A stretch of DNA of 64,000 bases from an uncultured Eubacteriales bacterium (GTDB lineage: Bacteria > Bacillota > Clostridia > Oscillospirales > Acutalibacteraceae), in contig CARTIQ010000005.1 in NCBI GenBank assembly GCA_949068525.1, positions 292 to 64,291 on the forward strand, written 5' to 3'. The translations under genes were made by a program, and so were the position numbers. This document shows, one piece after another, positions 490 to 42,764 of this stretch. Below the pieces are notes generated by a model. That model was not told the origin of the DNA, did no database searches, and saw nothing but the letters and a program-made list of their open reading frames with translations. Each line of letters begins with the position of its first letter. Positions within the stretch are counted from its first letter, which is position 1.

Positions 490-623
490 AATGTAATTGC
501 TCAGCAGAGCAACATAAAGATAAAAACACGTCCCGGTAGGTAGTCCGGGAGCAGCAATTGCTGTCAGTAGCCTGCCTCCTTTGGTTGTCCGTTCTTTATG
601 TAACTAAAAAAGGAGGAAATCTT
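490..623 (+). promoter_or_regulatory. structured 5' leader: candidate yjdF-class riboswitch or SD-sequestering element
   Basis: A ~130-nt leader separates the promoter from the start codon. It contains hairpin TCCCGG(531-536)/CCGGGA(545-550), hairpin GCTC(499-502)/GAGC(507-510), and a possible long-range pairing AATTGC(495-500)/GCAATT(554-559). CCTCCTTT (575-582) is the exact complement of the Shine-Dalgarno AAAGGAGG (609-616). The yjdF RNA motif is known to precede yjdF/DUF2992 genes in Firmicutes. I could not align this leader to the Rfam consensus from memory. Confidence 0.4.
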
Positions 624-2932: not shown

Positions 2933-3389
2933 ATGAAATTATGGCGAATTGCAGATGAATCGGAAAACATGATTAATAGATATTTGGAACGTGGAACAAT
3001 GTATGTTTTGAACGATAACGGAATCAAGAATATTTGTGTAGTTACAAATGAAAGCAACAACATCCTTGAAATAAAAAATATTGTAACGGTCCCTAAGTGC
3101 AAAAACCAAGGTTACGATAAAAAGATGATAAAATTTGTTGAGGATAAACATAGAAATGAATTTAAAAACTTACAAGTAGGGACAGGATAGCCCTTCAGTG
3201 ATTTCGTTTTACGAAAAAAGTGGCTTTAGAAAGTCCTATAAAATCAAAAATTTCTTTGTTGACAATTACGAAAAACCAATATATGAATGTGGTATACGGC
3301 TAACCGACATGATATACTTGACTAAGAGCCTAAATCATTTAGCGCATTTAAATATTGAAACGAGAAAAACAGATAACAAAAATAAATGA
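2933..3389 (+). pseudogene. GNAT-family N-acetyltransferase, split by a frameshift/stop near 3185-3190
   Basis: ORF 2933-3190 ends …NLQVGTG*. ORF 3198-3389 begins VISFYEKSGFRKSYKIKNFF. Read in the second frame from 3186, the junction gives DSPSVISFYEKSGF. Together the two pieces (~146 aa) rebuild a standard small GNAT (…LEIKNI.V…Q.GY.KKMI…QVGTG(D)SPS.ISFYEK.GF…). Confidence 0.6.
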
Positions 3390-3419
3390 GGACACAAGAA
3401 AAACCTTGTGTCCTTTTTT
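3390..3419 (+). terminator. strong intrinsic terminator between the convergent GNAT and giant genes
   Basis: The stem is GGACACAAG(3390-3398)/CTTGTGTCC(3405-3413) with a 6-nt loop, followed by TTTTTT (3414-3419). Its position could let it serve both convergent genes. Confidence 0.8.
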
Positions 3420-3476: not shown

Positions 3477-6400
3477 TTAATCGAAGGGACCAAACCCTGA
3501 ATATGTGTCGCCATTTTTCTTGTAAGGAGAATTACTTTTGCTTGCAGGATTTTCTTCTTTAGGGGTAGTGGGTGAACCAAATTCTTCATAATTGTTATTT
3601 GTTTCGGCATCCCCGTCAGGGCTGTCCCAAGGGGGTAGGTGAACGGTATTGTTGTTTTGTGGCGTGTTTTGGGGAGGTGTTTGAGCGTTTTGTGGCGTGC
3701 CTTGGTTAGGGGTTTCATTATTATTTTTATTAGGGCTGAAAAAATTTTTAATAGAGCCCCAAAATCCATGGTTGTTTTTTGTAGGAGTGATAGCTGTAGC
3801 CATTTTTATAGGATCAGGTATTTGATTCAAATTCATGTTTAGAGGTGTATGAATTTGTAGCAACGCTGTGGTTGGAGCAGGCGGAGGGGTTTGTTGATTA
3901 TCAGGGAGATTTGTTAAATTGTTAGCTTGATCTAGCGGGTGTTCATTTTCGGGTTGAGGTATCTGCGCATTTTGCTGCTGTGTGTTATCCGTGCGATCAA
4001 GTAAAGGAGTTACGGGTTGCACATTTGTTCCCCGGCGATTCGGAGTTAAAAATGTAGTGGTTTGAGCATGTTGCTGATTTTCTGGGTTTTCAGTCTGTGC
4101 CTCAGCAGGAGTTTCATTCTGTTGCTGATTTTCGTTCTGGTTATTTTCATTTAAATTATCATTTTCATCTTCATCATCGGCAAGTACATCATTATCATCT
4201 AAAAAGTTTGTAGGGGGTTGCAAACCTTTACCATCGCCGAAGTCGCTTCCACTATCAAAAAAATGATTTTCTCCTTCACCCTGTTGCGCCATGTATTCTG
4301 CGGCAACCTGTTTTGTTAGTTTGACTTGATCACTTATATCACTAGAAGTTTCAGATTCAATTCTTACCGCATCTGAGGGGATGTCTGGTATATCCACATC
4401 AGAAAATTTACCGCTTTGCTTATTGTTTTCTTGGTTACGCTCTTGCGTTAATTTTTCCAAAAATTCTCTTGTTAGTCTGATTTGATCACTTATATCACTA
4501 GAAGATTCAGATTCAATTCTTACCGCATCTGAGGAGATGTCTGGTATATCCACATCAAAAAAAATCTTTTCGTTTTCTTCCTCGGTTACATTTTGATTAT
4601 TCTGTTGCTCAGTTTCATTCTGTTGCTGATTTTCGTTCTGGTTATCTTCACTTAAATTATAATTATCATTTTTACTATCAGCGAGATTGTTTTCGTTTTG
4701 TGTTCGGCTATCGTATAAATTGTTAAGCGACTTTGACCTTTTGCTTTGCAAATTTTTGAATAGTTGATTGTCATCTTTCGCAGCAGGAGCTTGATCCTGT
4801 TGCACAATGTTTACATTCTGTGTCTCTTCTTCATTGTTTTCAGTCTGCTCCGCAGCATTTCCATTCTTTGTCTCTTCTTCAGTCGCTTGCTCATTATTAT
4901 CAGCCGGTGGTTCAGTTTCATTCTGTTGCAGATTTTCTTGGGTTACAGGCTGTTGCTGATTTTCGCTAGAATTTGAAGCTGGTTTAATATCTGCCGTAGA
5001 ATCTTTTGAATTTTGGTGGGTTTCTCCTTGTTGATTCTGGCCACTATTGGACACCAATGGAGTTACAGGTGGTTTCTCGGTTTTGTTTGCCTTTGGTGTG
5101 CTAAAAGTCCCGTTAGGTGTTTCTCTTTCTTGAGAATTGTTTTGCGCGCCTTCTTTAGGTCTGTTCATAAGTGGTGATTTAAATCCAGGTCGCGGATTAG
5201 CCGAGCATCTAGATTTTAAAAAAGTATGATTGCTGAGTTCGAAACTTATTTCCCCGAAACGGTCACTTTTATACTTATTTGGAACATAAATAGAGGGGAT
5301 TTCTGTAACCTTGCTATTGCCCATAGAGGAAAAAATGTAAGATTTAGCTGGGTTTTTTAGCCCGTGATAAGTAATGGATTCTAAACTGGAGCAATAAATA
5401 AAAGCAAAACTATCAATAAACTTTACGCTAGCAGGAATAACAAGCTCTTTAAGGCTTAAACAGTTACAAAAAGCCAGCCTCCCAATTGTCTCCAACCCTT
5501 CTGCAAGCTTAATTGAATGTAAGCCAGTGCAGTTTTCAAACGCTGAATTTCCTATAGAAGTTACGCTATTAGGGATTTCTATTTGTTGTAGACTGCTGCA
5601 ATCAGCAAAAGCCTTCTTGCCAATAGAAGTTGTTCCATAGTTTATTTTTACGTTGGTTAAGTTACTGCAGTTTTCAAACGCTGAATTTCCTATAGAAGTT
5701 ACGCTATTAGGGATTTCTATTTGTTGTAGACTGCTGCAATCAGCAAAAGCCTTCTTGCCAATAGAAGTTGTTCCATAGTTTATTTTTACGTTGGTTAAGT
5801 TACTGCAGTTTTCAAACGCCGAATCTCCTATAGAAGTTACGCTATTAGGGATTTCTATTTGTTGTAGACTGCTGCAAAAACCAAAAGCATTCTCGCCAAT
5901 AAAAGTTACGTTAACGGGGATATTAATCTGTTGCAATTTTGTGCAACAAAAAAACGTAAATTTTTCAATAGATTTTAAATTCTTTGGGATATTTATTTGT
6001 TTCAAACTTTCGCAATTCCAAAATACATCTTCCCCAATGGAAGTAACAGTCTCTGGGATTTTTACAGATTCTATGTTTAAACAATCCATAAACGCAGCGC
6101 TGCCAATAGAAGTTACACCTTCTTTTATATTGACAGTTTTTATTTCACCGCTGTATTTGAGTTGCCATGGTGCAGGAGCAATATCTTCGCCCTTATAATC
6201 ATAATTTGCCATATTGCCTGCGCCAGAGATCTCTAGGTTGCCATCTTTATAAAGCACCCATTTAACGTTTTGCCCATTATTTACAGAGGTATCTCCACAA
6301 AAACCTTCTACAAGGATATTCTCATTTGCTGGATCTTCGTTTTGTGTTCGGTTCTCGTATAAATTGTTAAGCGACTTTGCCCTTTTGATTTGTTTGTTGT

Positions 6401-9400
6401 TTTTATTGTTACGTTTATTTTCTAGGATTTTATCATCGGTGTGCGCAACTGTTGTCAACATGTTATTCTTCAAATTTTTGAATAGCTCTTTATCCTTATT
6501 GGCTTCTATAGCAGGCTTTATTAATGCATCAACGTAATCGTATATATCCGTTGGCGATAAACTTCCGAGGTTATCTCCTTCCTCAGCATCTTCTTCATAT
6601 TCCTCGTTAGAACTTATATCAAATTCTTTATAGATTGAATTTTCTGAGCCTCCACTCATATTTTGGTTTGGAAAAGCATTATTCTCACTTTTAGGTTCTT
6701 CAGCGCTATTGGTTTCGTTTTGAGCTTCTTCTTTAGTGCCACCGTCTTTACTCTGTTCAACGCTGGTGAGCCCATTTTCGTTTTCTTCCTCGGTTACATT
6801 TTGATTATTCTGTTGCTCAGTTTCATTCTGTTGCACAGCAGGAGCTTGAGGCTGTAGCATAATGTTTTCATCCGTTTGCGCATTGTTATTAGCCGCTAGC
6901 CCAATGTTTTCAGGATGTAGCTCAACAGGAGCTTCAGACGTTACCTGCATTTTATTCTGTGAGTTTTCAACTTGATTTTCGTCGGAGGTTATTGATGTGT
7001 TTTGAGGTTCTTCGTTGCTTGAAGTTAAACGATCAGTCTTATTTCTTTGTCTACTTCTGCCCGAACCGTTACCTTTTTGTTTTTGATTTTGTTTGTGCCT
7101 TTTTTTCTTATCGGCAAGTTTTTGAGCCGCTAGGGTGTCTTTTTGTGTTTTTTTCTCAAGAGCGTTCAATTGTTGATCGTTGTTCTTTGGAGTTTGAGCT
7201 GATTGCTGATTTTCTTGGGTTACAGGCAGTTGCCCAGTGTTTACAGTCTGTTCCTTAGCATTTTCATTCTGCTGGTCATTTTTATCCTGTAGCTCAACAG
7301 GCGGTTGGGTGTTTTTAGCCGGTTGTTCAGCAGGTGCTTGAGTAACAAATATAATTGGTTGTGCCGCTGGGAGAAATTTATTAATTTCTGTCTGGAGCCA
7401 AGCCTTGTACCGCTTAAATTCATCTGACTGCCTTATTGCTTGAATTCTATTAAGTAAATCCGTATTTTCTTTACGACCTCCAAATAACATAGACAGTATG
7501 GCAGCCTTATTCATAACGTCATTGTATTCATAAACAGGCTCGTCGGCCTGCTTTTCACGAGACCGAAACTCAAATGGGCATTTTTCCTTGACAAATTTTT
7601 GAAATACTTGGGCATCGGTAAAGGTTTTATTGGTTTTAGTGCAATCTTTAGTTATTGTTGTTCCGTCAAGACGAGCGTTGCTGCCGAAGCTGAATACCAT
7701 TTGGTCGGCGTTATAATCAATTTGTGCCGAGAGAGAAAAGGTGCTTAGCTCGCGTTGCACTTCGGGAGGGAGATTTTCAAGGGTGTGGCTTCTTAAATTT
7801 GCGATAAGCTGGTTAAGCTTTTCTTGAGGGGAAGCAGTCTGAGCATTGAGGTCTCTTGTATTTTTTAAAAGAAGTTGCTTAGCTGCTTTAAAGTTTTGCG
7901 TACTAATATTCGGGCAACCATCCGGCTTTAAGAAAGTAACATTGTCAGACTGGGTTGCATCCCAGCTCATTGTACAGACATAATTATCAACATATACATT
8001 CATAGTTGCAGACTCGACTTTGCGGTCTTTATTTTTTTGTGAGACTATAATCGGCACATCAACACAAGTAGTTGCCCGATTAATTAGTTTGGAGTTTTCC
8101 GCTGCATTTTTTATTGCAGCATCTCTATTTTTGGGGCTTCCATCGCTAGATACTATAACAGTTTGCAAATCTTTTGCATTGGCATTTTTGTCGTTGCTTT
8201 CTAAAAAAGACCTTATAAGATTTTCTTTTAATTTTTGTTGCGTTTTTTTAGAAGCTTTATCTATATCGGTTTTTTCAGAAGCTTCGATAAATATATTATA
8301 TCCTTTGTCAAAAGCCGTAAAATAACCGCTATACTGTTGATCTGTCTGTTGATTTGCAGGCCGCAGCCAATTGTACAATCCCGCAGCAAGACTTGCGACG
8401 CCACCCGCAATGGTTCCGGCAATTGCCAAGGGGCTCCAACTAGAGGCTTCTTTATTTGTGCTTTTATCCTCAACCGCTGAGAATGTTGTTATATCTGCAT
8501 TATCCTTGCCAAAGCCTGCAGAATTAGTTTCGCTGTTAGAAAACTTAACTTCGGTACTGCTAGTGTTGCTTGTGTTTGTTTGAGGAGCTCCAGCTTGTAT
8601 TGTTCCGCTGACGTTATCAGGAAAATTAAATGTGTTCGGAGCAATCTCTATATTAGTACCATTTTGTAATTGCATTTCAGCTGCATCGGGGACATTTGAG
8701 CTTTCAATATTTATTACAGGCCGCGTTCCTCTCGGTATATTTGAACCTTTTGGGGTGGTTGTGATTACTTTGTCGCCTGGTATATTTACTCCGGAACTGT
8801 TTGAGATATCATAACTTGTTGGCTTAAGGGATGGTTCTTCTGAATTTCTATCTTCTACTTTTTTTAAGATCCCTACTGTTCTTTGATCAACAGTATCTGC
8901 TAAATCAGGCCTTAAAGGATTATTAACAACCGCTTGTCCTTCATCCACCAATGCGTTGGAGCCACTGCCTTCGTAATTTAAAGGAGTCTTATTAACATCA
9001 ACAGACGTCGGTATATTTGAACCTTGTTGGCCAACGAATTGTGTTGCCGCACTGTCTGCCACCACTACAGGCGTTTGTATTTGAGAGGCATTTTCTTGTA
9101 GCTGTATTTCATTGACATCAACAGGCACTTGTCTAATAAAATGTTCTCCGCTCCATGAGGACCCACCCTCGGTAACAATAGAGTCTAGGTTTTCTAATTT
9201 ACTGCTATCCAAATCGTCTTGTGATGGATTATGCCACTCTCCAGGGGTAAATATTAGATCTTGCGGGAGGGGAGTTACCCTATTATAAGAGGGCAAGTTT
9301 TCGGCTGCTACCCTCCAAGAAGGTGTGATAGTTGTATTCCCCTGTTGTTGTATAGAAGGAGGATTTGTATAACCAAAATCATCTTGTGGAAGTTGATTTA

Positions 9401-11087
9401 GATGGCTATAATATATGGGACTCAACGCACTATGTGCATTGGTAGTATTAGCAAAATTTATGTTTTGGTTTGATTTGTTAATATCGAAGTTATTTGGCGA
9501 TCCTCCTATGCCTAAAGACGTACTTAATAAAGCTATACCTGATTTTACAAATAAAGGAAGCTCGCCGGTGTATACATAATATCCAGCTGCGGCAAGGGTT
9601 CCCGCAGCTAAAGCTCCATATTTTAAAATGTTTCTCCAGCGAGGACTGGAGTTGTTATAGTTATCTATGATTTGCTCATCCTGATTTAGTTGTTCCCCGT
9701 CCTGGTTTGTCGGGTCCCCATCCTGGTTTGTCGGGTCCCCGTCCTGATTTGGCTGTTCCGAAGGCGGAAGGGAGGATACATCATTATCTTCTTGTGAGCT
9801 TGGGTTTGTCGCTTCACCCTGATTCTGAGAGTTTGCGTTGTTCCCTTGACTTAGCTGTTCCTCGGGCTGGCTTTGCGGTCGCTCATCCTGATTTGGCTGT
9901 TCCCCATCCTGGTTTGTCGGGTCCCCATCCTGGTTTGTCGGGTCCCCATCCTGATTTGGCTGTTCCGAAGGCGGAAGGGAGGATACATCATTATCTTCTT
10001 GTGAGCTTGGGTTTGTCGCTTCACCCTGATTCTGAGAGTTTGCGTTGTTCCCTTGACTTAGCTGTTCCTCGGGCTGGCTTTGCGGTCGCTCATCCTGATT
10101 TGGCTGTTCCCCATCCTGGTTTGTCGGGTCCCCATCCTGATTTGGCTGTTCCGAAGCCGGAAGGGAGGATACATCATTATCTTCTTGTGAGCTTGGGTTT
10201 GCCGCTTCATCCTGATTCTGAGGATTTAGGTCTCCATCATGGTCCTGAGTCTTTGTGTCTTCATCTTGATCCTGAGAGTTTGCGTTGTTCCCTTGACTTA
10301 GCTGTTCCTCGGGCTGGTCTGGCTGTTGTTCATCCCGGTTTGTCGGTTCCCCATCCTGATTTGGCTGTTCCTCAGGCTGCATTTGCTGTTCCTCATCCAG
10401 GTTTGTCGGTTGCACATCCAAATTTTGCCCAATACTTTCGTTGGTTGTATTAGCTGTTTTATCCTCTTCTTCATTTCTAATTTCATCTTCAACGAAATTT
10501 GCAATTCCACGGTTTTGCAATGCAAAAGTATTCACACGGTCCGTTTCTTTTGAGGTGTTTTTGCTTTTTTCTTTTCCTAACCTATTAGTATTTGTCGTTG
10601 ACTTTCTGATATTTTTTTGCTTATTATGTTTTTTATTTGATGTTTCATACTTAGAGTCTGCGTTATTCTCCTGAAGCTTTGAGCCAGACTTTTTATGGGA
10701 GTTGTTATTCTCTTCTTGATCTGATTCCCTTACAATAGGGGTAACCAAAGGGTAACTGTTAATTGCTGCCACATTAAGAAAAGAACCCAAAGTTGCAAGC
10801 AAAAATCCCCAGGCGACACTTTGCCGAGAAGCACCCCCGCTTATGTTTAGTAACTCCTCATTGCTTAGTTCAGATATTTGATTTTCTGCATATTCGAGAA
10901 ATTCTTTTGCTGTAAAATTTATTCCATGTTTCTTTGCAATCGGAATAACTTTACTTTTAATAAATTGTTCCTCATCAAAAACGCGATCTTTTTGCTGTAT
11001 TTTGTTATTTATTTTGATTAGTTCTTTTGCAATATTTTCATCGGACCTTATTAGATCAAAAAATTTCTCAACATTTTTAACAGACAT
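3477..11087 (-). CDS. giant (2,536 aa) repeat-rich membrane/surface protein: Nif11-like GG-leader N-terminus, hydrophobic segments, D/E/N/Q/P-rich repeats, unassigned Cys-containing domain, BspA/TpLRR-type leucine-rich repeats
   Basis: This is a single uninterrupted ORF with RBS AAAGGTGG upstream of ATG 11087. Residues 1-85 carry a Nif11-type leader ending ELSNEELLNISGG. Hydrophobic helices lie at about residues 91-113, 487-530 and 884-908. The LRR units read IP.SVTSIG..AF..C..L..I (about residues 1600-1960). I see no Sec signal peptide and no LPXTG motif. Confidence 0.85.
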   Translation of the reverse strand: MSVKNVEKFFDLIRSDENIAKELIKINNKIQQKDRVFDEEQFIKSKVIPIAKKHGINFTAKEFLEYAENQISELSNEELLNISGGASRQSVAWGFLLATLGSFLNVAAINSYPLVTPIVRESDQEENNNSHKKSGSKLQENNADSKYETSNKKHNKQKNIRKSTTNTNRLGKEKSKNTSKETDRVNTFALQNRGIANFVEDEIRNEEEDKTANTTNESIGQNLDVQPTNLDEEQQMQPEEQPNQDGEPTNRDEQQPDQPEEQLSQGNNANSQDQDEDTKTQDHDGDLNPQNQDEAANPSSQEDNDVSSLPASEQPNQDGDPTNQDGEQPNQDERPQSQPEEQLSQGNNANSQNQGEATNPSSQEDNDVSSLPPSEQPNQDGDPTNQDGDPTNQDGEQPNQDERPQSQPEEQLSQGNNANSQNQGEATNPSSQEDNDVSSLPPSEQPNQDGDPTNQDGDPTNQDGEQLNQDEQIIDNYNNSSPRWRNILKYGALAAGTLAAAGYYVYTGELPLFVKSGIALLSTSLGIGGSPNNFDINKSNQNINFANTTNAHSALSPIYYSHLNQLPQDDFGYTNPPSIQQQGNTTITPSWRVAAENLPSYNRVTPLPQDLIFTPGEWHNPSQDDLDSSKLENLDSIVTEGGSSWSGEHFIRQVPVDVNEIQLQENASQIQTPVVVADSAATQFVGQQGSNIPTSVDVNKTPLNYEGSGSNALVDEGQAVVNNPLRPDLADTVDQRTVGILKKVEDRNSEEPSLKPTSYDISNSSGVNIPGDKVITTTPKGSNIPRGTRPVINIESSNVPDAAEMQLQNGTNIEIAPNTFNFPDNVSGTIQAGAPQTNTSNTSSTEVKFSNSETNSAGFGKDNADITTFSAVEDKSTNKEASSWSPLAIAGTIAGGVASLAAGLYNWLRPANQQTDQQYSGYFTAFDKGYNIFIEASEKTDIDKASKKTQQKLKENLIRSFLESNDKNANAKDLQTVIVSSDGSPKNRDAAIKNAAENSKLINRATTCVDVPIIVSQKNKDRKVESATMNVYVDNYVCTMSWDATQSDNVTFLKPDGCPNISTQNFKAAKQLLLKNTRDLNAQTASPQEKLNQLIANLRSHTLENLPPEVQRELSTFSLSAQIDYNADQMVFSFGSNARLDGTTITKDCTKTNKTFTDAQVFQKFVKEKCPFEFRSREKQADEPVYEYNDVMNKAAILSMLFGGRKENTDLLNRIQAIRQSDEFKRYKAWLQTEINKFLPAAQPIIFVTQAPAEQPAKNTQPPVELQDKNDQQNENAKEQTVNTGQLPVTQENQQSAQTPKNNDQQLNALEKKTQKDTLAAQKLADKKKRHKQNQKQKGNGSGRSRQRNKTDRLTSSNEEPQNTSITSDENQVENSQNKMQVTSEAPVELHPENIGLAANNNAQTDENIMLQPQAPAVQQNETEQQNNQNVTEEENENGLTSVEQSKDGGTKEEAQNETNSAEEPKSENNAFPNQNMSGGSENSIYKEFDISSNEEYEEDAEEGDNLGSLSPTDIYDYVDALIKPAIEANKDKELFKNLKNNMLTTVAHTDDKILENKRNNKNNKQIKRAKSLNNLYENRTQNEDPANENILVEGFCGDTSVNNGQNVKWVLYKDGNLEISGAGNMANYDYKGEDIAPAPWQLKYSGEIKTVNIKEGVTSIGSAAFMDCLNIESVKIPETVTSIGEDVFWNCESLKQINIPKNLKSIEKFTFFCCTKLQQINIPVNVTFIGENAFGFCSSLQQIEIPNSVTSIGDSAFENCSNLTNVKINYGTTSIGKKAFADCSSLQQIEIPNSVTSIGNSAFENCSNLTNVKINYGTTSIGKKAFADCSSLQQIEIPNSVTSIGNSAFENCTGLHSIKLAEGLETIGRLAFCNCLSLKELVIPASVKFIDSFAFIYCSSLESITYHGLKNPAKSYIFSSMGNSKVTEIPSIYVPNKYKSDRFGEISFELSNHTFLKSRCSANPRPGFKSPLMNRPKEGAQNNSQERETPNGTFSTPKANKTEKPPVTPLVSNSGQNQQGETHQNSKDSTADIKPASNSSENQQQPVTQENLQQNETEPPADNNEQATEEETKNGNAAEQTENNEEETQNVNIVQQDQAPAAKDDNQLFKNLQSKRSKSLNNLYDSRTQNENNLADSKNDNYNLSEDNQNENQQQNETEQQNNQNVTEEENEKIFFDVDIPDISSDAVRIESESSSDISDQIRLTREFLEKLTQERNQENNKQSGKFSDVDIPDIPSDAVRIESETSSDISDQVKLTKQVAAEYMAQQGEGENHFFDSGSDFGDGKGLQPPTNFLDDNDVLADDEDENDNLNENNQNENQQQNETPAEAQTENPENQQHAQTTTFLTPNRRGTNVQPVTPLLDRTDNTQQQNAQIPQPENEHPLDQANNLTNLPDNQQTPPPAPTTALLQIHTPLNMNLNQIPDPIKMATAITPTKNNHGFWGSIKNFFSPNKNNNETPNQGTPQNAQTPPQNTPQNNNTVHLPPWDSPDGDAETNNNYEEFGSPTTPKEENPASKSNSPYKKNGDTYSGFGPFD
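4327..4556 (-). repeat. two copies of a 156-bp coding repeat (core ~75 bp nearly identical)
   Basis: TGATCACTTATATCACTAGAAG.TTCAGATTCAATTCTTACCGCATCTGAGG.GATGTCTGGTATATCCACATCA begins at 4327 and again at 4483. It encodes …DVDIPDI(S/P)SDAVRIESE(S/T)SSDISDQ…. Confidence 0.85.
5526..5875 (-). repeat. ~2.5 near-identical tandem copies of a 138-bp unit (two LRR units, 46 aa) inside the LRR block
   Basis: The same string starts at about 5528, 5666 and 5804, giving a 138-bp period. The first two copies match essentially base for base. The unit encodes IPNSVTSIGNSAFENCSNLTNVKINYGTTSIGKKAFADCSSLQQIE. Confidence 0.9.
9690..10300 (-). repeat. three tandem ~207/207/186-bp coding repeats (D/E/N/Q/P/S-rich low-complexity units)
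   Basis: GAAGGCGGAAGGGAGGATACATC recurs at 9760 and 9967, with a variant at 10153. The units encode SSLPPSEQPNQDGDPTNQDG…ERPQSQPEEQLSQGNNANSQNQGEATNPSSQEDNDV. Confidence 0.9.
10833..11087 (-). other. segment encoding the Nif11-type leader-like domain ending in the double-glycine motif (residues 1-85 of the giant protein)
   Basis: The sequence is MSVKNVEKFFDLIRSDENIAKELIK…IAKKHGINFTAKEFLEYAENQISELSNEELLNISGG|ASRQS. Codons 84-85 (GG) lie at 10833-10838. Confidence 0.6.
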
Positions 11088-11140
11088 AGTTTACGCCACC
11101 TTTTCTTTAATTTAAATTGCAACACTAAATACACTTATAT

Positions 11141-11168
11141 AGATTATCACAAAATCTTGTTTTTGTCA
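11141..11168 (-). promoter_or_regulatory. sigma-A-type promoter for the giant gene
   Basis: On the minus strand: TTGACA (11168-11163), a 16-nt spacer, then extended -10 TGtGATAAT (-10 hexamer at 11146-11141). This sits ~55 nt upstream of the ATG. Confidence 0.55.
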
Positions 11169-11386
11169 ATAGTCACAAAAAAAAATAAAATAAAAATATT
11201 TTTTGTCAAATATGTCAAAGAGGTGGGTAAAAGTTTAATTTTGGTTTATTAATACCACAAAAAGATAAAATCAATTAACTCAATTTTTTTGTTGTACAAG
11301 TCGATACGATAATGAAAATTAAATAATAAAATTTAATATATTAAGTGATGCTCACATCGAAAAATCATGATTTAAAATCCGTATAA

Positions 11387-11428
11387 AAATTAGGCCCTTC
11401 AGAGTAAAAATAAGGACCTAATTTTTTT
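11387..11428 (+). terminator. orphan terminator-like hairpin in the 412-bp intergenic region
   Basis: The stem is AATTAGGCCC(11387-11396)/GGACCTAATT(11413-11422) with one mismatch, followed by a T7 run. No annotated gene lies upstream on the + strand. Confidence 0.35.
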
Positions 11429-37991: not shown

Positions 37992-38300
37992 ATGGTTAAA
38001 AAAGATTTGTTCAAAAAGACAACGCCAATAGTTTTAAACGCAATTTTAGGGTTTATAGTGTTTTCAAATGTTTGTTCTGCAAGTGCTCCGCGTCGAGACC
38101 TTAATAGGCTGCAAAGACAAACGTTTACAACTATCGTTCAATTACCAAGTCTTGAACAAACCAACACTCAACCAAATGATATATCTTCTAATAAGAAAGA
38201 TAATGATGGCGAATATATTCCTGACGAAGAGGCTTTGAAAAAAGAAGAACAAAGAGAAGAAGAAGATTTTCGACAGATGATAGAGGAAATTTTAAAATAA
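37992..38300 (+). CDS. small secreted acidic protein, paralog 1 (hypothetical)
   Basis: The protein is 102 aa. It has RBS AAAGGTG, the signal peptide MVKKDLFKKTTPIVLNAILGFIVFSNVCSASA|P, and a C-terminal acidic tract (…DEEALKKEEQREEEDF…). Confidence 0.65.
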   Translation: MVKKDLFKKTTPIVLNAILGFIVFSNVCSASAPRRDLNRLQRQTFTTIVQLPSLEQTNTQPNDISSNKKDNDGEYIPDEEALKKEEQREEEDFRQMIEEILK

Positions 38301-38376
38301 AAAAGTATATGATATAAAAATTTTTAAGGGGTTTTAAGGTAATCAAATTTTAAAATTATATATGAGGTGTAAAGTT

Positions 38377-38763
38377 ATGTTAAGAAATAAGTTGTTAAAA
38401 AAAGTTTCTTCGGCAGCTTTGGCAATGTTTTTTTTGTGCATTTCAGTAGCATCTGTTTGTTTTGCTAGTGCCCCATCCCCCAATAGACCGTCAGCTAAAA
38501 AGCAGTCTTCTTGGATGAAAGTGCCTTCGCCATCAAAGGATTATGAAGACGCGTATGATATTGCAAAAGAAGATGGAAAAAATAAAAACAATGAAGAAGA
38601 TGAGGTCGATTGGCTGGAAAATAATTCTTGTGAAGAAGAGGAAGAGGAATGGCTAGAGAATCAAGAAGGCTATTTAAAAGAAAATGAAGATGATGTTAAT
38701 AATCCTCATAACAAGGGTGACACAAATTTAAATAGACCAGATTCTAGCAACGTCGGGAATTAA
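38377..38763 (+). CDS. small secreted acidic protein, paralog 2 (hypothetical)
   Basis: The ORF runs from 38362; ATG 38377 lies 7 nt after GAGGTG. The signal peptide is MLRNKLLKKVSSAALAMFFLCISVASVCFASA|P. The mature part contains NEEDEVDWLENNSCEEEEEEWLENQEGYLKENEDD. Confidence 0.65.
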   Translation: MLRNKLLKKVSSAALAMFFLCISVASVCFASAPSPNRPSAKKQSSWMKVPSPSKDYEDAYDIAKEDGKNKNNEEDEVDWLENNSCEEEEEEWLENQEGYLKENEDDVNNPHNKGDTNLNRPDSSNVGN

Positions 38764-38936
38764 ATTGATGAGATTTTAGGGGAAAGGGAAGAAAGGTGTC
38801 TTTTCCTTTGAACAAAAAAATTTAGTTGGAAAAATATCATTTTTGGAGAAGAGAAATATAAATAGTTTTGAAATTAGAAAATTTTCAAACATTAAGATGT
38901 TATAAAATAAAAAAGTTAAGAGGTTGTTAGCAAATT

Positions 38937-39338
38937 ATGCAAAGAAAATTTATTTCGGTAATTTTGGCAATATTTTTTTGCCACGTAGGATCAAATAGTT
39001 GTTTGGCTAGCTTACCTTGGTGGCAGCAGTTATCAAATGTTGAATATAGTAATAATTCTGAAGAAGACACAACGTGGAAAGAAAGTGATGAGGAGGAGGA
39101 AGATACGTATTTTACTGAAGAGGAAGAAGTTAGTGACGATAATTCTACAAAGTATGAAGAAATAACCCCAAAAGATGTATCTGAAAAAACAACTGGAAGA
39201 GAGAAAACACCCCAAAACAGCAATTCATCGGTAGAAGAAAATAGAAATATAAATGGATACCTAATTGTATCAACTGATTATGCTAGTTCTGACTGCGATG
39301 ACGGACCATGGCAAAGACGTGGGTTGCATAACTCTTGA
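38937..39338 (+). CDS. small secreted acidic protein, paralog 3 (hypothetical)
   Basis: The signal peptide is MQRKFISVILAIFFCHVGSNSCLA|S. The mature part contains SEEDTTWKESDEEEEDTYFTEEEEVSDD. Confidence 0.6.
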   Translation: MQRKFISVILAIFFCHVGSNSCLASLPWWQQLSNVEYSNNSEEDTTWKESDEEEEDTYFTEEEEVSDDNSTKYEEITPKDVSEKTTGREKTPQNSNSSVEENRNINGYLIVSTDYASSDCDDGPWQRRGLHNS

Positions 39339-42533: not shown

Positions 42534-42764
42534 TTAATTAATAAGGTTTTGCTTTAGCTGTTCACTCATCCCGTATACATTGCCTCCAGAGGCAGCATCT
42601 AGTTCATCGGAGCTTAACTCCAGACCGTCCGATATTTTTTTAAACAGACGATCTAACTCTTCTTTTGCTAAATTTAAGCCATTGCTTTTGGCTAAAGAAG
42701 AAAGCTCTGGTTTGGTTTTGCAGTCTTTGGCAAAGTTTAAAAATTCTTTTATAGTCATAGCCAT
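42534..42764 (-). CDS. Nif11-like / double-glycine leader peptide precursor (76 aa; 15-aa predicted core)
   Basis: The sequence is MAMTIKEFLNFAKDCKTKPELSSLAKSNGLNLAKEELDRLFKKISDGLELSSDELDAASGG|NVYGMSEQLKQNLIN. Leader features (N-terminal …KEFL.…A…, then ELS.DEL.AASGG) resemble TIGR03798/Nif11-type precursors. A weak RBS AGGA sits 7 nt upstream. Confidence 0.6.
   Translation of the reverse strand: MAMTIKEFLNFAKDCKTKPELSSLAKSNGLNLAKEELDRLFKKISDGLELSSDELDAASGGNVYGMSEQLKQNLIN

Follow-up and report, generated by a model that had tools for sequence, protein, structure and literature searches.

How could a protein of 2,536 amino acid residues (aa), which opens with the leader of a small secreted peptide, be brought to the surface of a cell? 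The question is raised by a gene of an uncultured Eubacteriales bacterium of the family Acutalibacteraceae, borne by a stretch of 64,000 nucleotides (nt) of contig CARTIQ010000005.1 (assembly GCA_949068525.1), the whole of which is called here the window. Leaders of the Nif11 type, ending with a double glycine (GG), are textbook material for bacteriocins, lanthipeptides and pheromones, and the ATP-binding cassette (ABC) exporters that bear a C39 peptidase (PCATs) are regarded as exporters of peptides. As far as its sequence can tell, the giant protein would be a strain-variable, adhesin-like surface protein, with a BspA-type leucine-rich-repeat (LRR) block set on long low-complexity stalks, and its N-terminus appears to be a two-part sorting module belonging to a large family in gut Clostridia (Oscillospirales/Acutalibacteraceae and relatives). 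We propose, at just under an even chance of being right, that this module couples a Sec-type signal-anchor with removal of the leader by a C39 peptidase.

The leader, the helix and the family that carries them

The open reading frame (ORF) is uninterrupted, starts with ATG and codes for 2,536 aa, and its product is identical to a protein on public record (P0152). Its first 85 residues had been read, in the initial annotation of the window, as a Nif11-type GG leader, a proposal that has stood up well. Residues 1-95 taken alone exceed the gathering cutoff of Pfam Nif11 (PF07862; 25.5 bits for a cutoff of 23.8) and stay slightly under that of TIGR03798 (30.1 bits, E=4e-7, for a cutoff of 32.3), so that of the two models to which that annotation had looked, the first recognizes the segment and the second does not quite do so. 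Weaker matches to class IIb bacteriocin and generic GG-leader models are also present, and in a scan of the full-length protein the Nif11 and TIGR03798 scores are both under cutoff. Because these hidden Markov model (HMM) scores are borderline by themselves, the decisive support has to be taken from the relatives. In an alignment of 41 N-terminal sequences (A1), TIGR03798 is matched by 39 modules (best E=1.5e-13), Pfam Nif11 by 35, and TIGR03949, the class IIb bacteriocin lactobin A/cerein 7B family, by 19. The A1 profile also matches 9zn4_A of the Protein Data Bank (PDB), a 'Nif11 domain-containing protein' (E=1.6e-13, profile positions 1-85 covered), the solved chain of which terminates exactly at its own GG, ...ELSDSELEAVAGG; it was the sequence-profile search that found this entry, a Foldseek comparison of the module model with the PDB giving no significant match. 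AlphaFold2 (AF2), supplied with A1, predicts four helices over residues 3-73 with a local confidence score (pLDDT) of ~76-91, then a GG-bearing segment (75-85) of low confidence, presumably flexible, and the next helix at 88-101. To judge from these profiles, the first 85 residues form a true double-glycine leader of the Nif11 type, whose homology to leaders found in PCAT clusters extends from end to end. The start codon is right as well, since conservation among homologs sets in at Met1, and in 144 of 148 proteins the module opens no later than residue 12; the possibility, envisaged at the outset, that the true start lies downstream of the GG can be set aside.

In PCAT1 and in LahT, the C39 peptidase domain is touched by the leader at -7 and -12, which make up the 'hydrophobic knot', and at -4, the specificity position (PMC6959990). 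The corresponding residues of the giant protein are Leu79, Leu74 and Ile82, and the stretch in which they are embedded, ISELSNEELLNISGG, displays Ile(-15), Leu(-12), Leu(-7), Ile(-4) and Gly-Gly(-2, -1); cleavage is predicted after Gly85.

The protein had at first been taken for a singular oddity, and this is where the view of it has changed most. When 1.84 billion representative proteins were searched exhaustively with residues 1-124 (HMMER), 279 representative clusters came out at E<=1e-3, of which 73 reached E<=1e-10. The family is visible by this means only: word-indexed searches with the N-terminus, the central domain or the module alignment returned nothing or almost nothing, and a metagenome scan with a closer-subset alignment gave 5 loci only. 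No model of NCBIfam release 20 or of Pfam spans the combined leader-plus-helix module. The best 150 of the 279 representatives have a median length of 542 aa (maximum 3,031); 141 of them show the GG motif (hydrophobic-xx-hydrophobic-x-GG near residue 86), and 111 of these 141 are large-core members, with cores of 155-2,948 aa (median 598). Their module consists of a four-helix Nif11 leader ending LSxEDLxNVSGG, a short K/R-containing stretch and a hydrophobic helix of ~19 aa. In a second alignment, made of 68 mid-size members picked by length alone and not by motif, GG and Leu(-12) never vary and >=90% of the sequences keep Leu(-7), even though overall identity to the first sequence falls to ~15-25%; the family logo further has V/I(-4) at 95%, S(-3) at 80% and acidic residues at -8 to -10. 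Conservation of the C39-recognition positions across proteins that are large and deeply diverged argues that the GG site is used, and that the leader is probably cleaved.

The same conservation bears on another way of seeing the Nif11-like segment, namely as a permanent cytoplasmic domain, never cleaved, of a type II or multi-span membrane protein, in which GG would be inherited or would have a structural or interaction role. This would fit a confidently predicted helical bundle placed directly before a transmembrane-like helix, with neither peptidase nor exporter nearby, and the very diverse cargo behind the module is what might be expected of a generic membrane-proximal domain. It is a live rival, weaker than the cleaved leader and in our judgement distinctly unlikely, as it would have to account for the retention of the positions just listed in leaders the rest of which drifts to ~26-30% identity, a pattern difficult to understand unless recognition by a protease is selected for. 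Moreover, the prediction for the GG segment is that it is flexible and exposed, and the homologous leaders, solved or clustered, are cleavable leaders of peptides made on ribosomes and modified after translation (RiPPs). More radically, the architecture might be an artefact, a small Nif11 precursor gene having been fused to the ORF of a surface protein by an error of assembly or sequencing, or the resemblance being due to chance; the sources are metagenome assemblies, and the HMM scores of this protein lie near thresholds. We regard this as effectively excluded, because the ORF is uninterrupted in three independent assemblies and the same continuous architecture is found in >100 diverged clusters, with a family profile that matches 9zn4_A.

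The second part of the module begins immediately after the GG. The initial annotation had noticed there a hydrophobic helix (~91-113; measured, 89-115, Kyte-Doolittle 1.80) while stating that the protein had no Sec signal, and it had overlooked the helix as a conserved, Sec-like part of the module. The statement is correct for the extreme N-terminus, where the 85-aa leader stands; it does not extend to the post-GG segment, in which hydropathy and composition reveal the layout of a Sec signal peptide or signal-anchor, Arg88 making the n-region and ~19 aa the h-region. The helix would be N-terminal only after cleavage at the GG, and would otherwise be an internal signal-anchor. A hydrophobic 15-mer is found <=15 residues from the GG in 106 of the 111 large members, as against 16 of the 30 small ones (Fisher p=1.2e-7). 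The first 8 residues after the GG of large members contain K or R in 85 cases out of 111 and D or E in 2 out of 111; according to the family logo, positions +6 to ~+24 are hydrophobic, with G or P common near +19 and +20, and AXA-like motifs end many of the helices. A stretch rich in K/R and poor in D/E before a helix is the positive-inside signature expected for insertion by Sec or YidC, not for an ABC cavity. Another strong hydrophobic segment is absent from 104 of 112 large members, and none of the 112 has a C-terminal anchor. The positive-inside signature, the enrichment of the helix in large members and the lack of another anchor lead us to favour a signal-anchor of the Sec/signal recognition particle (SRP) type.

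Behind the module, most of the sequence in the family is of low complexity and unannotated. LRR_5 is found in the giants, an ADP-ribosyltransferase exotoxin domain in one member and an ADP-ribosylglycohydrolase domain in another; LRR_5 and the exotoxin domain are of types associated with extracellular proteins. Many mid-size members share in their last 55 residues a motif of ~50 aa, roughly D[IV].H[VL]...G......G.....[LI].KI..F (e.g. P0045, P0058, P0066, P0069, P0084, P0086, P0059 and P0075), which is absent from the giant protein and may be a second conserved module, such as one for docking or wall binding, of a subfamily. Family members also occur as tandem trios, of 677, 400 and 2,213 aa at L084 6661-16609 and of 240, 801 and 743 aa at L085 4173-9675, with near-identical leaders and divergent cargo; these arrays are similar to those of RiPP multi-precursors, with cores that have the size of proteins.

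Routes across the membrane

In the scenario that we favour, residues 1-85 would be a folded Nif11-type leader, with a flexible LSxEELxxISGG site open to recognition by a C39 cysteine peptidase, and residues 86-115 would bring a positive n-region followed by a hydrophobic helix of ~19 aa. Operating as a signal-anchor of the SRP/Sec type, N-in/C-out, this helix would move the large cargo unfolded across the membrane and then tether it, with the Nif11 leader remaining at the cytoplasmic face. Removal of the leader after Gly85 would fall to a peptidase of the C39 type whose gene would lie in another part of the genome, be it the domain of a PCAT or an enzyme that stands alone. In an unmasking variant, cleavage at the GG would come before targeting, and the helix would become an ordinary N-terminal signal peptide. 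We infer GG cleavage and the use of Sec from the conservation of the two halves of the module.

With a Sec-like helix after the GG, export of the whole protein by a PCAT is unnecessary. It deserves discussion all the same: a PCAT-type ABC exporter would cut the leader with its C39 domain and thread the 2,451-residue cargo unfolded, in the manner of the HlyB-type type I secretion systems (T1SS) that handle giant RTX adhesins, and the helix would later partition into the membrane as an N-terminal anchor. The leader is indeed canonical for PCATs and strongly conserved, and small cousins with the same leader adjoin a PCAT (locus L104). The modules matching TIGR03949 resemble, across the GG and into the hydrophobic core, class IIb bacteriocin precursors, which are PCAT substrates, and in type I secretion proteins several thousand residues long leave the cell through ABC exporters of the superfamily to which PCATs belong. 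We nevertheless hold this route to be unlikely. Indeed, the cavity of PCAT1, of ~15,000 A^3, holds a single cargo of 66 residues (~9,000 A^3), and the model put forward for this exporter has the entire cargo loaded into the cavity before one alternating-access step (PMC6959990). The 2,451 aa past the GG are too large for a PCAT1-type cavity, and canonical PCAT export of the whole cargo is therefore unlikely. Threading would leave unexplained both the positive n-region and the near absence of acidic residues before the helix, and the enrichment of the helix in large members suggests that large cargo has a requirement which small PCAT cargo lacks.

Genomic context speaks against threading too. 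No PCAT or C39 gene was found <=10 kb of large or helix-bearing members in >15 independent contexts, sampled around giants (P0002, P0012, P0076, P0157), mid-size members (L085-L088) and short helix-bearing ones (P0072, P0099, P0158). It had been remarked from the start that a genome devoid of PCATs would argue against leader-dependent export; as regards the window, there is neither C39 peptidase nor ABC exporter in its 64 kb, where the sole nearby ABC protein is of the ABC-F type. When the PCAT of L104 was used as a tblastn query, neither the window nor 105 other loci, 1.58 Mb altogether and an overlapping contig of the same species included, yielded a C39 domain; a motif-heuristic PCAT scan had the same negative outcome for the window and for every locus but L104. 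Family members are scattered among housekeeping genes, sometimes two or three in tandem. A positive control is provided by P0159, a Cys-rich cousin with a small core, which sits in a PCAT, ABC and radical-SAM cluster. This cluster, at L104 4205-12858, codes for a PCAT of 728 aa (Peptidase_C39, ABC_membrane and ABC_tran), a second ABC exporter of 731 aa, a radical SAM enzyme and three tandem Nif11-leader precursors of 140-148 aa with CxxC-rich cores, all in the compact arrangement of RiPP clusters.

The presence of a radical SAM enzyme in that cluster is one of several observations that might be read in yet another way, in which the leader would recruit a modifying enzyme and the cargo would be modified before leader removal and export, as a RiPP of the size of a protein. 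Nif11 leaders are the recognition element of LanM, radical-SAM and other maturases (PMC2887384). Next to the giant gene lies a GNAT gene, and a Cys-rich protein of 191-196 aa without a Pfam match comes directly after family members at L085-L088. We find this very unlikely, because the GNAT gene is frameshifted in the window, is in two fragments in a second assembly, is convergent with the giant gene and has no relationship to the L085/L086 neighbour. No maturase (LanM, cyclodehydratase or radical SAM) is present in the window or <=10 kb of large members at L080-L103, so that none recurs in the >15 contexts, and the cargo is mostly of low complexity, with no conserved modification motif detected.

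The Cys-rich protein, with CxxCxGPCKC at its C-terminus, is conserved as the immediate downstream neighbour of family members in two related lineages (L085 9662-10282; L086 and L087 12808-13464; L088 12552-13223), at 67-69% identity between lineages. It could be a lineage-specific partner or modifier; as a general partner it was rejected, being restricted to these lineages, lacking a Pfam match and having no relationship with the GNAT remnant of the window. Two further export routes were discarded for the giant protein: type IV prepilin-like processing, as there is no G|F/M-T-L-x-E motif and the residue at +4 is K/R, with no E at +5, and export of the type VII secretion (LXG) type, in view of the adjacent transmembrane helix and lack of LXG homology.

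The window contains another ORF with a GG leader, a short one, at 42534-42764 (minus strand), between genes for a PlsY-type acyltransferase and an M50 peptidase. It reads MAMTIKEFLNFAKD...LELSSDELDAASGG and, after the cleavage site, NVYGMSEQLKQNLIN; it is Nif11-like (module HMM E=2e-4), its core has 15 aa, and its product may be a pheromone or a bacteriocin-like peptide. Its existence suggests, indirectly, that the genome has some GG-processing capacity.

Several points weigh against a signal-anchor coupled to leader removal. The first is conceptual: the model does not make plain why there should be a leader in the first place. The TIGR03798 score of the protein itself is, as said above, under the cutoff, and the peptidase proposed to cut the leader would lie outside the window. 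A helix after the GG is also typical of the PCAT-exported cores of class II bacteriocins, as the TIGR03949 matches of 19 of the 41 modules recall, and what we take for a Sec signal could be bacteriocin-like sequence retained by inheritance. There are, finally, extra internal hydrophobic helices in the giant protein and in its closest relatives. Those of the giant protein had been placed by the initial annotation at ~487-530 and ~884-908, and we measure them at 487-505 and 509-530 (both weak) and at 883-907; the closest giant relatives have internal Ala/Gly-rich helices too, at non-homologous positions. With two spans (89-115 and 883-907) the LRR block would be cytoplasmic. An LRR block outside the cell would require an odd number of spans, which might be, for instance, 89-115, 509-530 and 883-907. 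The final topology, like the adhesin function, is something that we infer.

Taken beyond this gene, the data allow us to contemplate, with confidence somewhat short of even, a general sorting pathway of gut Clostridia (Oscillospirales), in which a Nif11 GG leader processed by C39 peptidases or PCATs would be coupled either to a Sec-like signal-anchor or to PCAT-like threading. In a first version, cleavage by C39 could license or complete export by unmasking a signal peptide; in a second one, a PCAT-like ABC exporter might thread thousands of residues, N-terminus first.

Cargo and locus of the giant gene

The features of the gene and of its surroundings are collected in Table 1.

Table 1. Features of the giant gene and of its flanks, in coordinates of the window
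Feature	Position	Strand	Basis
Bidirectional intrinsic-terminator hairpin, 11-bp stem, common to the giant gene and the convergent GNAT pseudogene	3388..3415	unstranded	terminator scan
Complete giant gene, stop codon 3477-3479 included	3477..11087	minus	ORF list and translation; identical to P0152
N/Q/E/T/P-rich low-complexity tail, residues 1991-2536	3480..5117	minus	composition; no sorting motif
BspA-type leucine-rich-repeat block, residues ~1611-1960	5208..6257	minus	Pfam LRR_5; 138-nt repeat
Orphan central domain, residues ~911-1260, 5 Cys	7308..8357	minus	no homologs found
Internal hydrophobic helix, residues 883-907	8367..8441	minus	hydropathy 1.63
Two weak Ala/Gly-rich hydrophobic segments, residues 487-505 and 509-530, putative membrane segments	9498..9629	minus	hydropathy
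Acidic D/E/N/Q/P-rich tandem-repeat stalk, residues 121-485, net charge -56	9633..10727	minus	Tandem Repeats Finder, composition
Post-GG signal-anchor-like segment, residues 89-115, helix VAWGFLLATLGSFLNVAAI	10743..10823	minus	hydropathy; kept in 106/111 large members
C39-recognition stretch ISELSNEELLNISGG, residues 71-85	10833..10877	minus	family logo; rule from PMC6959990
Nif11-type double-glycine leader, residues 1-85	10833..11087	minus	Nif11 25.5 bits, TIGR03798 30.1 bits, 9zn4_A profile match, AF2
Shine-Dalgarno GGTGG, 8 nt 5' of ATG	11096..11100	minus	sequence reading
Promoter-like region: TTGACA-16-TATTTT and a second TTGACA then TGTGATAAT	11140..11209	minus	consensus scan, suggestive only
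Synteny breakpoint	11422	unstranded	blastn against L001, L002, L011, L015 and others

Past the module, the layout of the cargo is much as the initial annotation had described it. The ~350 aa of acidic, N/Q/P-rich tandem repeats are there, with periods of 207 and 21 nt, and the BspA-type block (~1600-1960) matches LRR_5 (PF13306) over three stretches, with E=2.8e-87 and 289.5 bits for a cutoff of 27.7. The central Cys-containing domain (~910-1240), which could not be assigned at first, resists assignment still: homolog searches with its ~350 aa were empty, and AF2 run on the single sequence gave an uninformative model (pLDDT 39) that was discarded. The N/Q/P-rich nature of the tail is borne out by composition, and, as had been stated, there is no LPXTG-like motif near the C-terminus, nor a C-terminal hydrophobic segment that might serve as an anchor. 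A scan of the full-length protein gave no match to RTX/HemolysinCabind or related Pfam models.

Of the flanking elements announced at the outset, the strong terminator is located, and the adjoining GNAT gene is decayed as described. The consensus promoter fares less well, promoter-like hexamers being no commoner (19 found) than in shuffled sequence (23.3 +/- 4.6 expected). The GNAT acetyltransferase gene (window 2933-3390, plus strand), convergent with the giant gene, is broken by a frameshift; spliced across frames, the remnant matches Acetyltransf_7/10, and gene calling in the second assembly of the species splits it into pieces of 85 and 63 aa. Recent horizontal acquisition was considered on the basis of composition and rejected, the guanine-plus-cytosine content of the giant gene (39.6%) being close to that of the rest of the window (40.3%).

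Upstream of the giant gene comes spoIVB, directly, as had been noted. Loci anchored on SpoIVB assign the organism to the Acutalibacteraceae/Oscillospirales. The initial annotation had given recN as the usual occupant of this place and had suggested an accessory insertion; the closest genomes, metagenome-assembled genomes (MAGs) from mouse gut with SpoIVB identity of 90-92%, uphold the second idea and not the first. These congeners align with the window at ~86.6% nucleotide identity, only from position 11422 rightwards. The break occurs 78 nt upstream of spoIVB, and nothing to its left, the giant gene included, is shared with them; at that place they have aroB/aroA/aroC, then other large surface-type proteins. 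The break in synteny, together with different large surface proteins in congeners, makes of this place a species-specific, variable surface-protein slot, not a recN position, and it appears to be a hotspot of surface-protein turnover. In the closest congeners (L001 4537-9790), the slot opens with a protein whose N-terminal signal peptide looks ordinary and closes with one that has a C-terminal transmembrane anchor.

Within the species, the same gene is present at the same locus in a second assembly (L080, GCA_948591355.1), and the three assemblies available specify products of 2,536, 2,490 and 2,421 aa. They differ by indels of whole repeats, a 46-aa LRR double unit (residues 1756-1801, ~nt 5685-5822) and a 69-aa acidic repeat (residues 316-384, ~nt 9936-10142), and by at most 4 substitutions; the LRR double unit is missing from both variants and the acidic repeat from one of them. 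Either this is real variation in repeat number of a surface protein, or repeats have collapsed during MAG assembly.

The second assembly extends past the left edge of the window, where L080 21026-21235 holds the beginning of another protein, whose N-terminus is Nif11-like (E=9e-7 with the module HMM) and which is cut by the end of the contig. It would stand ~77-290 nt past that edge, on the minus strand of the window and just beyond a DUF2992 gene, and the species probably has at least two family members flanking a small region. Elsewhere in the window (37992-39338, plus strand) are three tandem small ORFs of 102, 133 and 133 aa, with N-termini resembling signal peptides that end ...ASAP or ...CLAS; they may form a paralogous family of small secreted proteins.

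Significance and known counterparts

In the literature searched, no large membrane-anchored protein is described as having a Nif11 or GG leader. We find here the same leader, with conserved protease-recognition positions, on >100 diverged families of proteins of 0.2-3 thousand residues, which implies either a new class of substrates for C39 peptidases and PCATs or a two-step sorting signal, leader plus Sec anchor, in gut anaerobes that are abundant and poorly studied. If true, either version of the pathway would extend the biology of double-glycine leaders from peptides to adhesins of megadalton scale, by means of a module that is small and portable. There are also consequences for annotation. 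As these proteins have no N-terminal signal peptide, standard predictors would call them cytoplasmic, or 'RiPP precursors', so that much of the Oscillospirales surface proteome would go unseen. Since some of the cargo consists of BspA-type LRR adhesins, which differ from strain to strain by entire repeats, the family has a bearing on colonization of the host.

Five types of known proteins invite comparison with the giant protein. Its leader is a member of the Nif11 family by homology, and the reference here is the set of Nif11-like leader peptide (N11P) RiPP precursors, such as the prochlorosin ProcA (Haft, Basu & Mitchell 2010; PMC2887384). The likeness lies in a homologous helical leader of ~75-85 aa ending LSxxELxxVxGG and in the small cousins, retrieved by the same search, that sit in PCAT and radical-SAM clusters (L104). 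The protein departs from this class by the length of its core, 2,451 aa (family median ~600) as against tens of residues in precursors of ~120 aa or less, by the conserved positive n-region and hydrophobic helix after the GG, by the lack of an adjacent maturase or PCAT, and by a cargo that is adhesin-like and of low complexity where the RiPP core is hypervariable and rich in Cys/Ser/Thr. The short core and the neighbouring maturase or PCAT, both of which it lacks, are two traits by which Nif11 RiPP precursors are defined.

A match for the LRR block is easily found among the BspA-type LRR proteins (PF13306; Tannerella BspA), the resemblance ending where the LRR_5 repeats end: the N-terminal sorting module, the stalks and the orphan central domain are unrelated to them. 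The streptococcal HupY/LrrG model (NF047961) is matched in part, with 94.7 bits, far below its equivalog cutoff of 1250 bits.

The closest analogies of function, as they appear to us, are with class II bacteriocin precursors, serine-rich-repeat adhesins and giant adhesins of T1SS, none of which is a match. The class II/IIb bacteriocin precursors (those handled by ComA, LagD, LahT or PCAT1-CtA; TIGR03949) have the same hydrophobic positions -4, -7 and -12 in their GG leader and a hydrophobic, Gly-rich helix directly after the cleavage site. They are of ~100 aa or less, fit the cavity and are exported by PCATs or ABC-transporter maturation and secretion (AMS) proteins, whereas hundreds to thousands of residues follow the helix here, and no transporter is linked. 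The giant RTX adhesins (LapA, SiiE, MpIBP) take the type I secretion route through HlyB-type ABC exporters with a degenerate C39-like domain, and LapA has an N-terminal retention module that is removed by a cysteine protease at a dipeptide of small residues. They, too, are very large repetitive adhesins handled by the ABC/C39 superfamily; their C-terminal uncleaved signal, RTX repeats and tripartite machinery of Gram-negative organisms have no equivalent in the protein of the window. The serine-rich-repeat adhesins (GspB, Fap1), lastly, have extended signal peptides of ~90 aa (KxYKxGKxW type) and are exported by the accessory SecA2/SecY2 system. There is no kinship of sequence or fold, since they have no Nif11 bundle or GG motif, and they are anchored by LPXTG, with accessory Sec genes clustered with the adhesin gene. 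They are, like the giant protein, low-complexity, strain-variable adhesins of great size in Firmicutes, with a long N-terminal pre-region ahead of a Gly-rich hydrophobic core, an arrangement which implies, there as it may here, a specialized targeting step upstream of Sec-type translocation.

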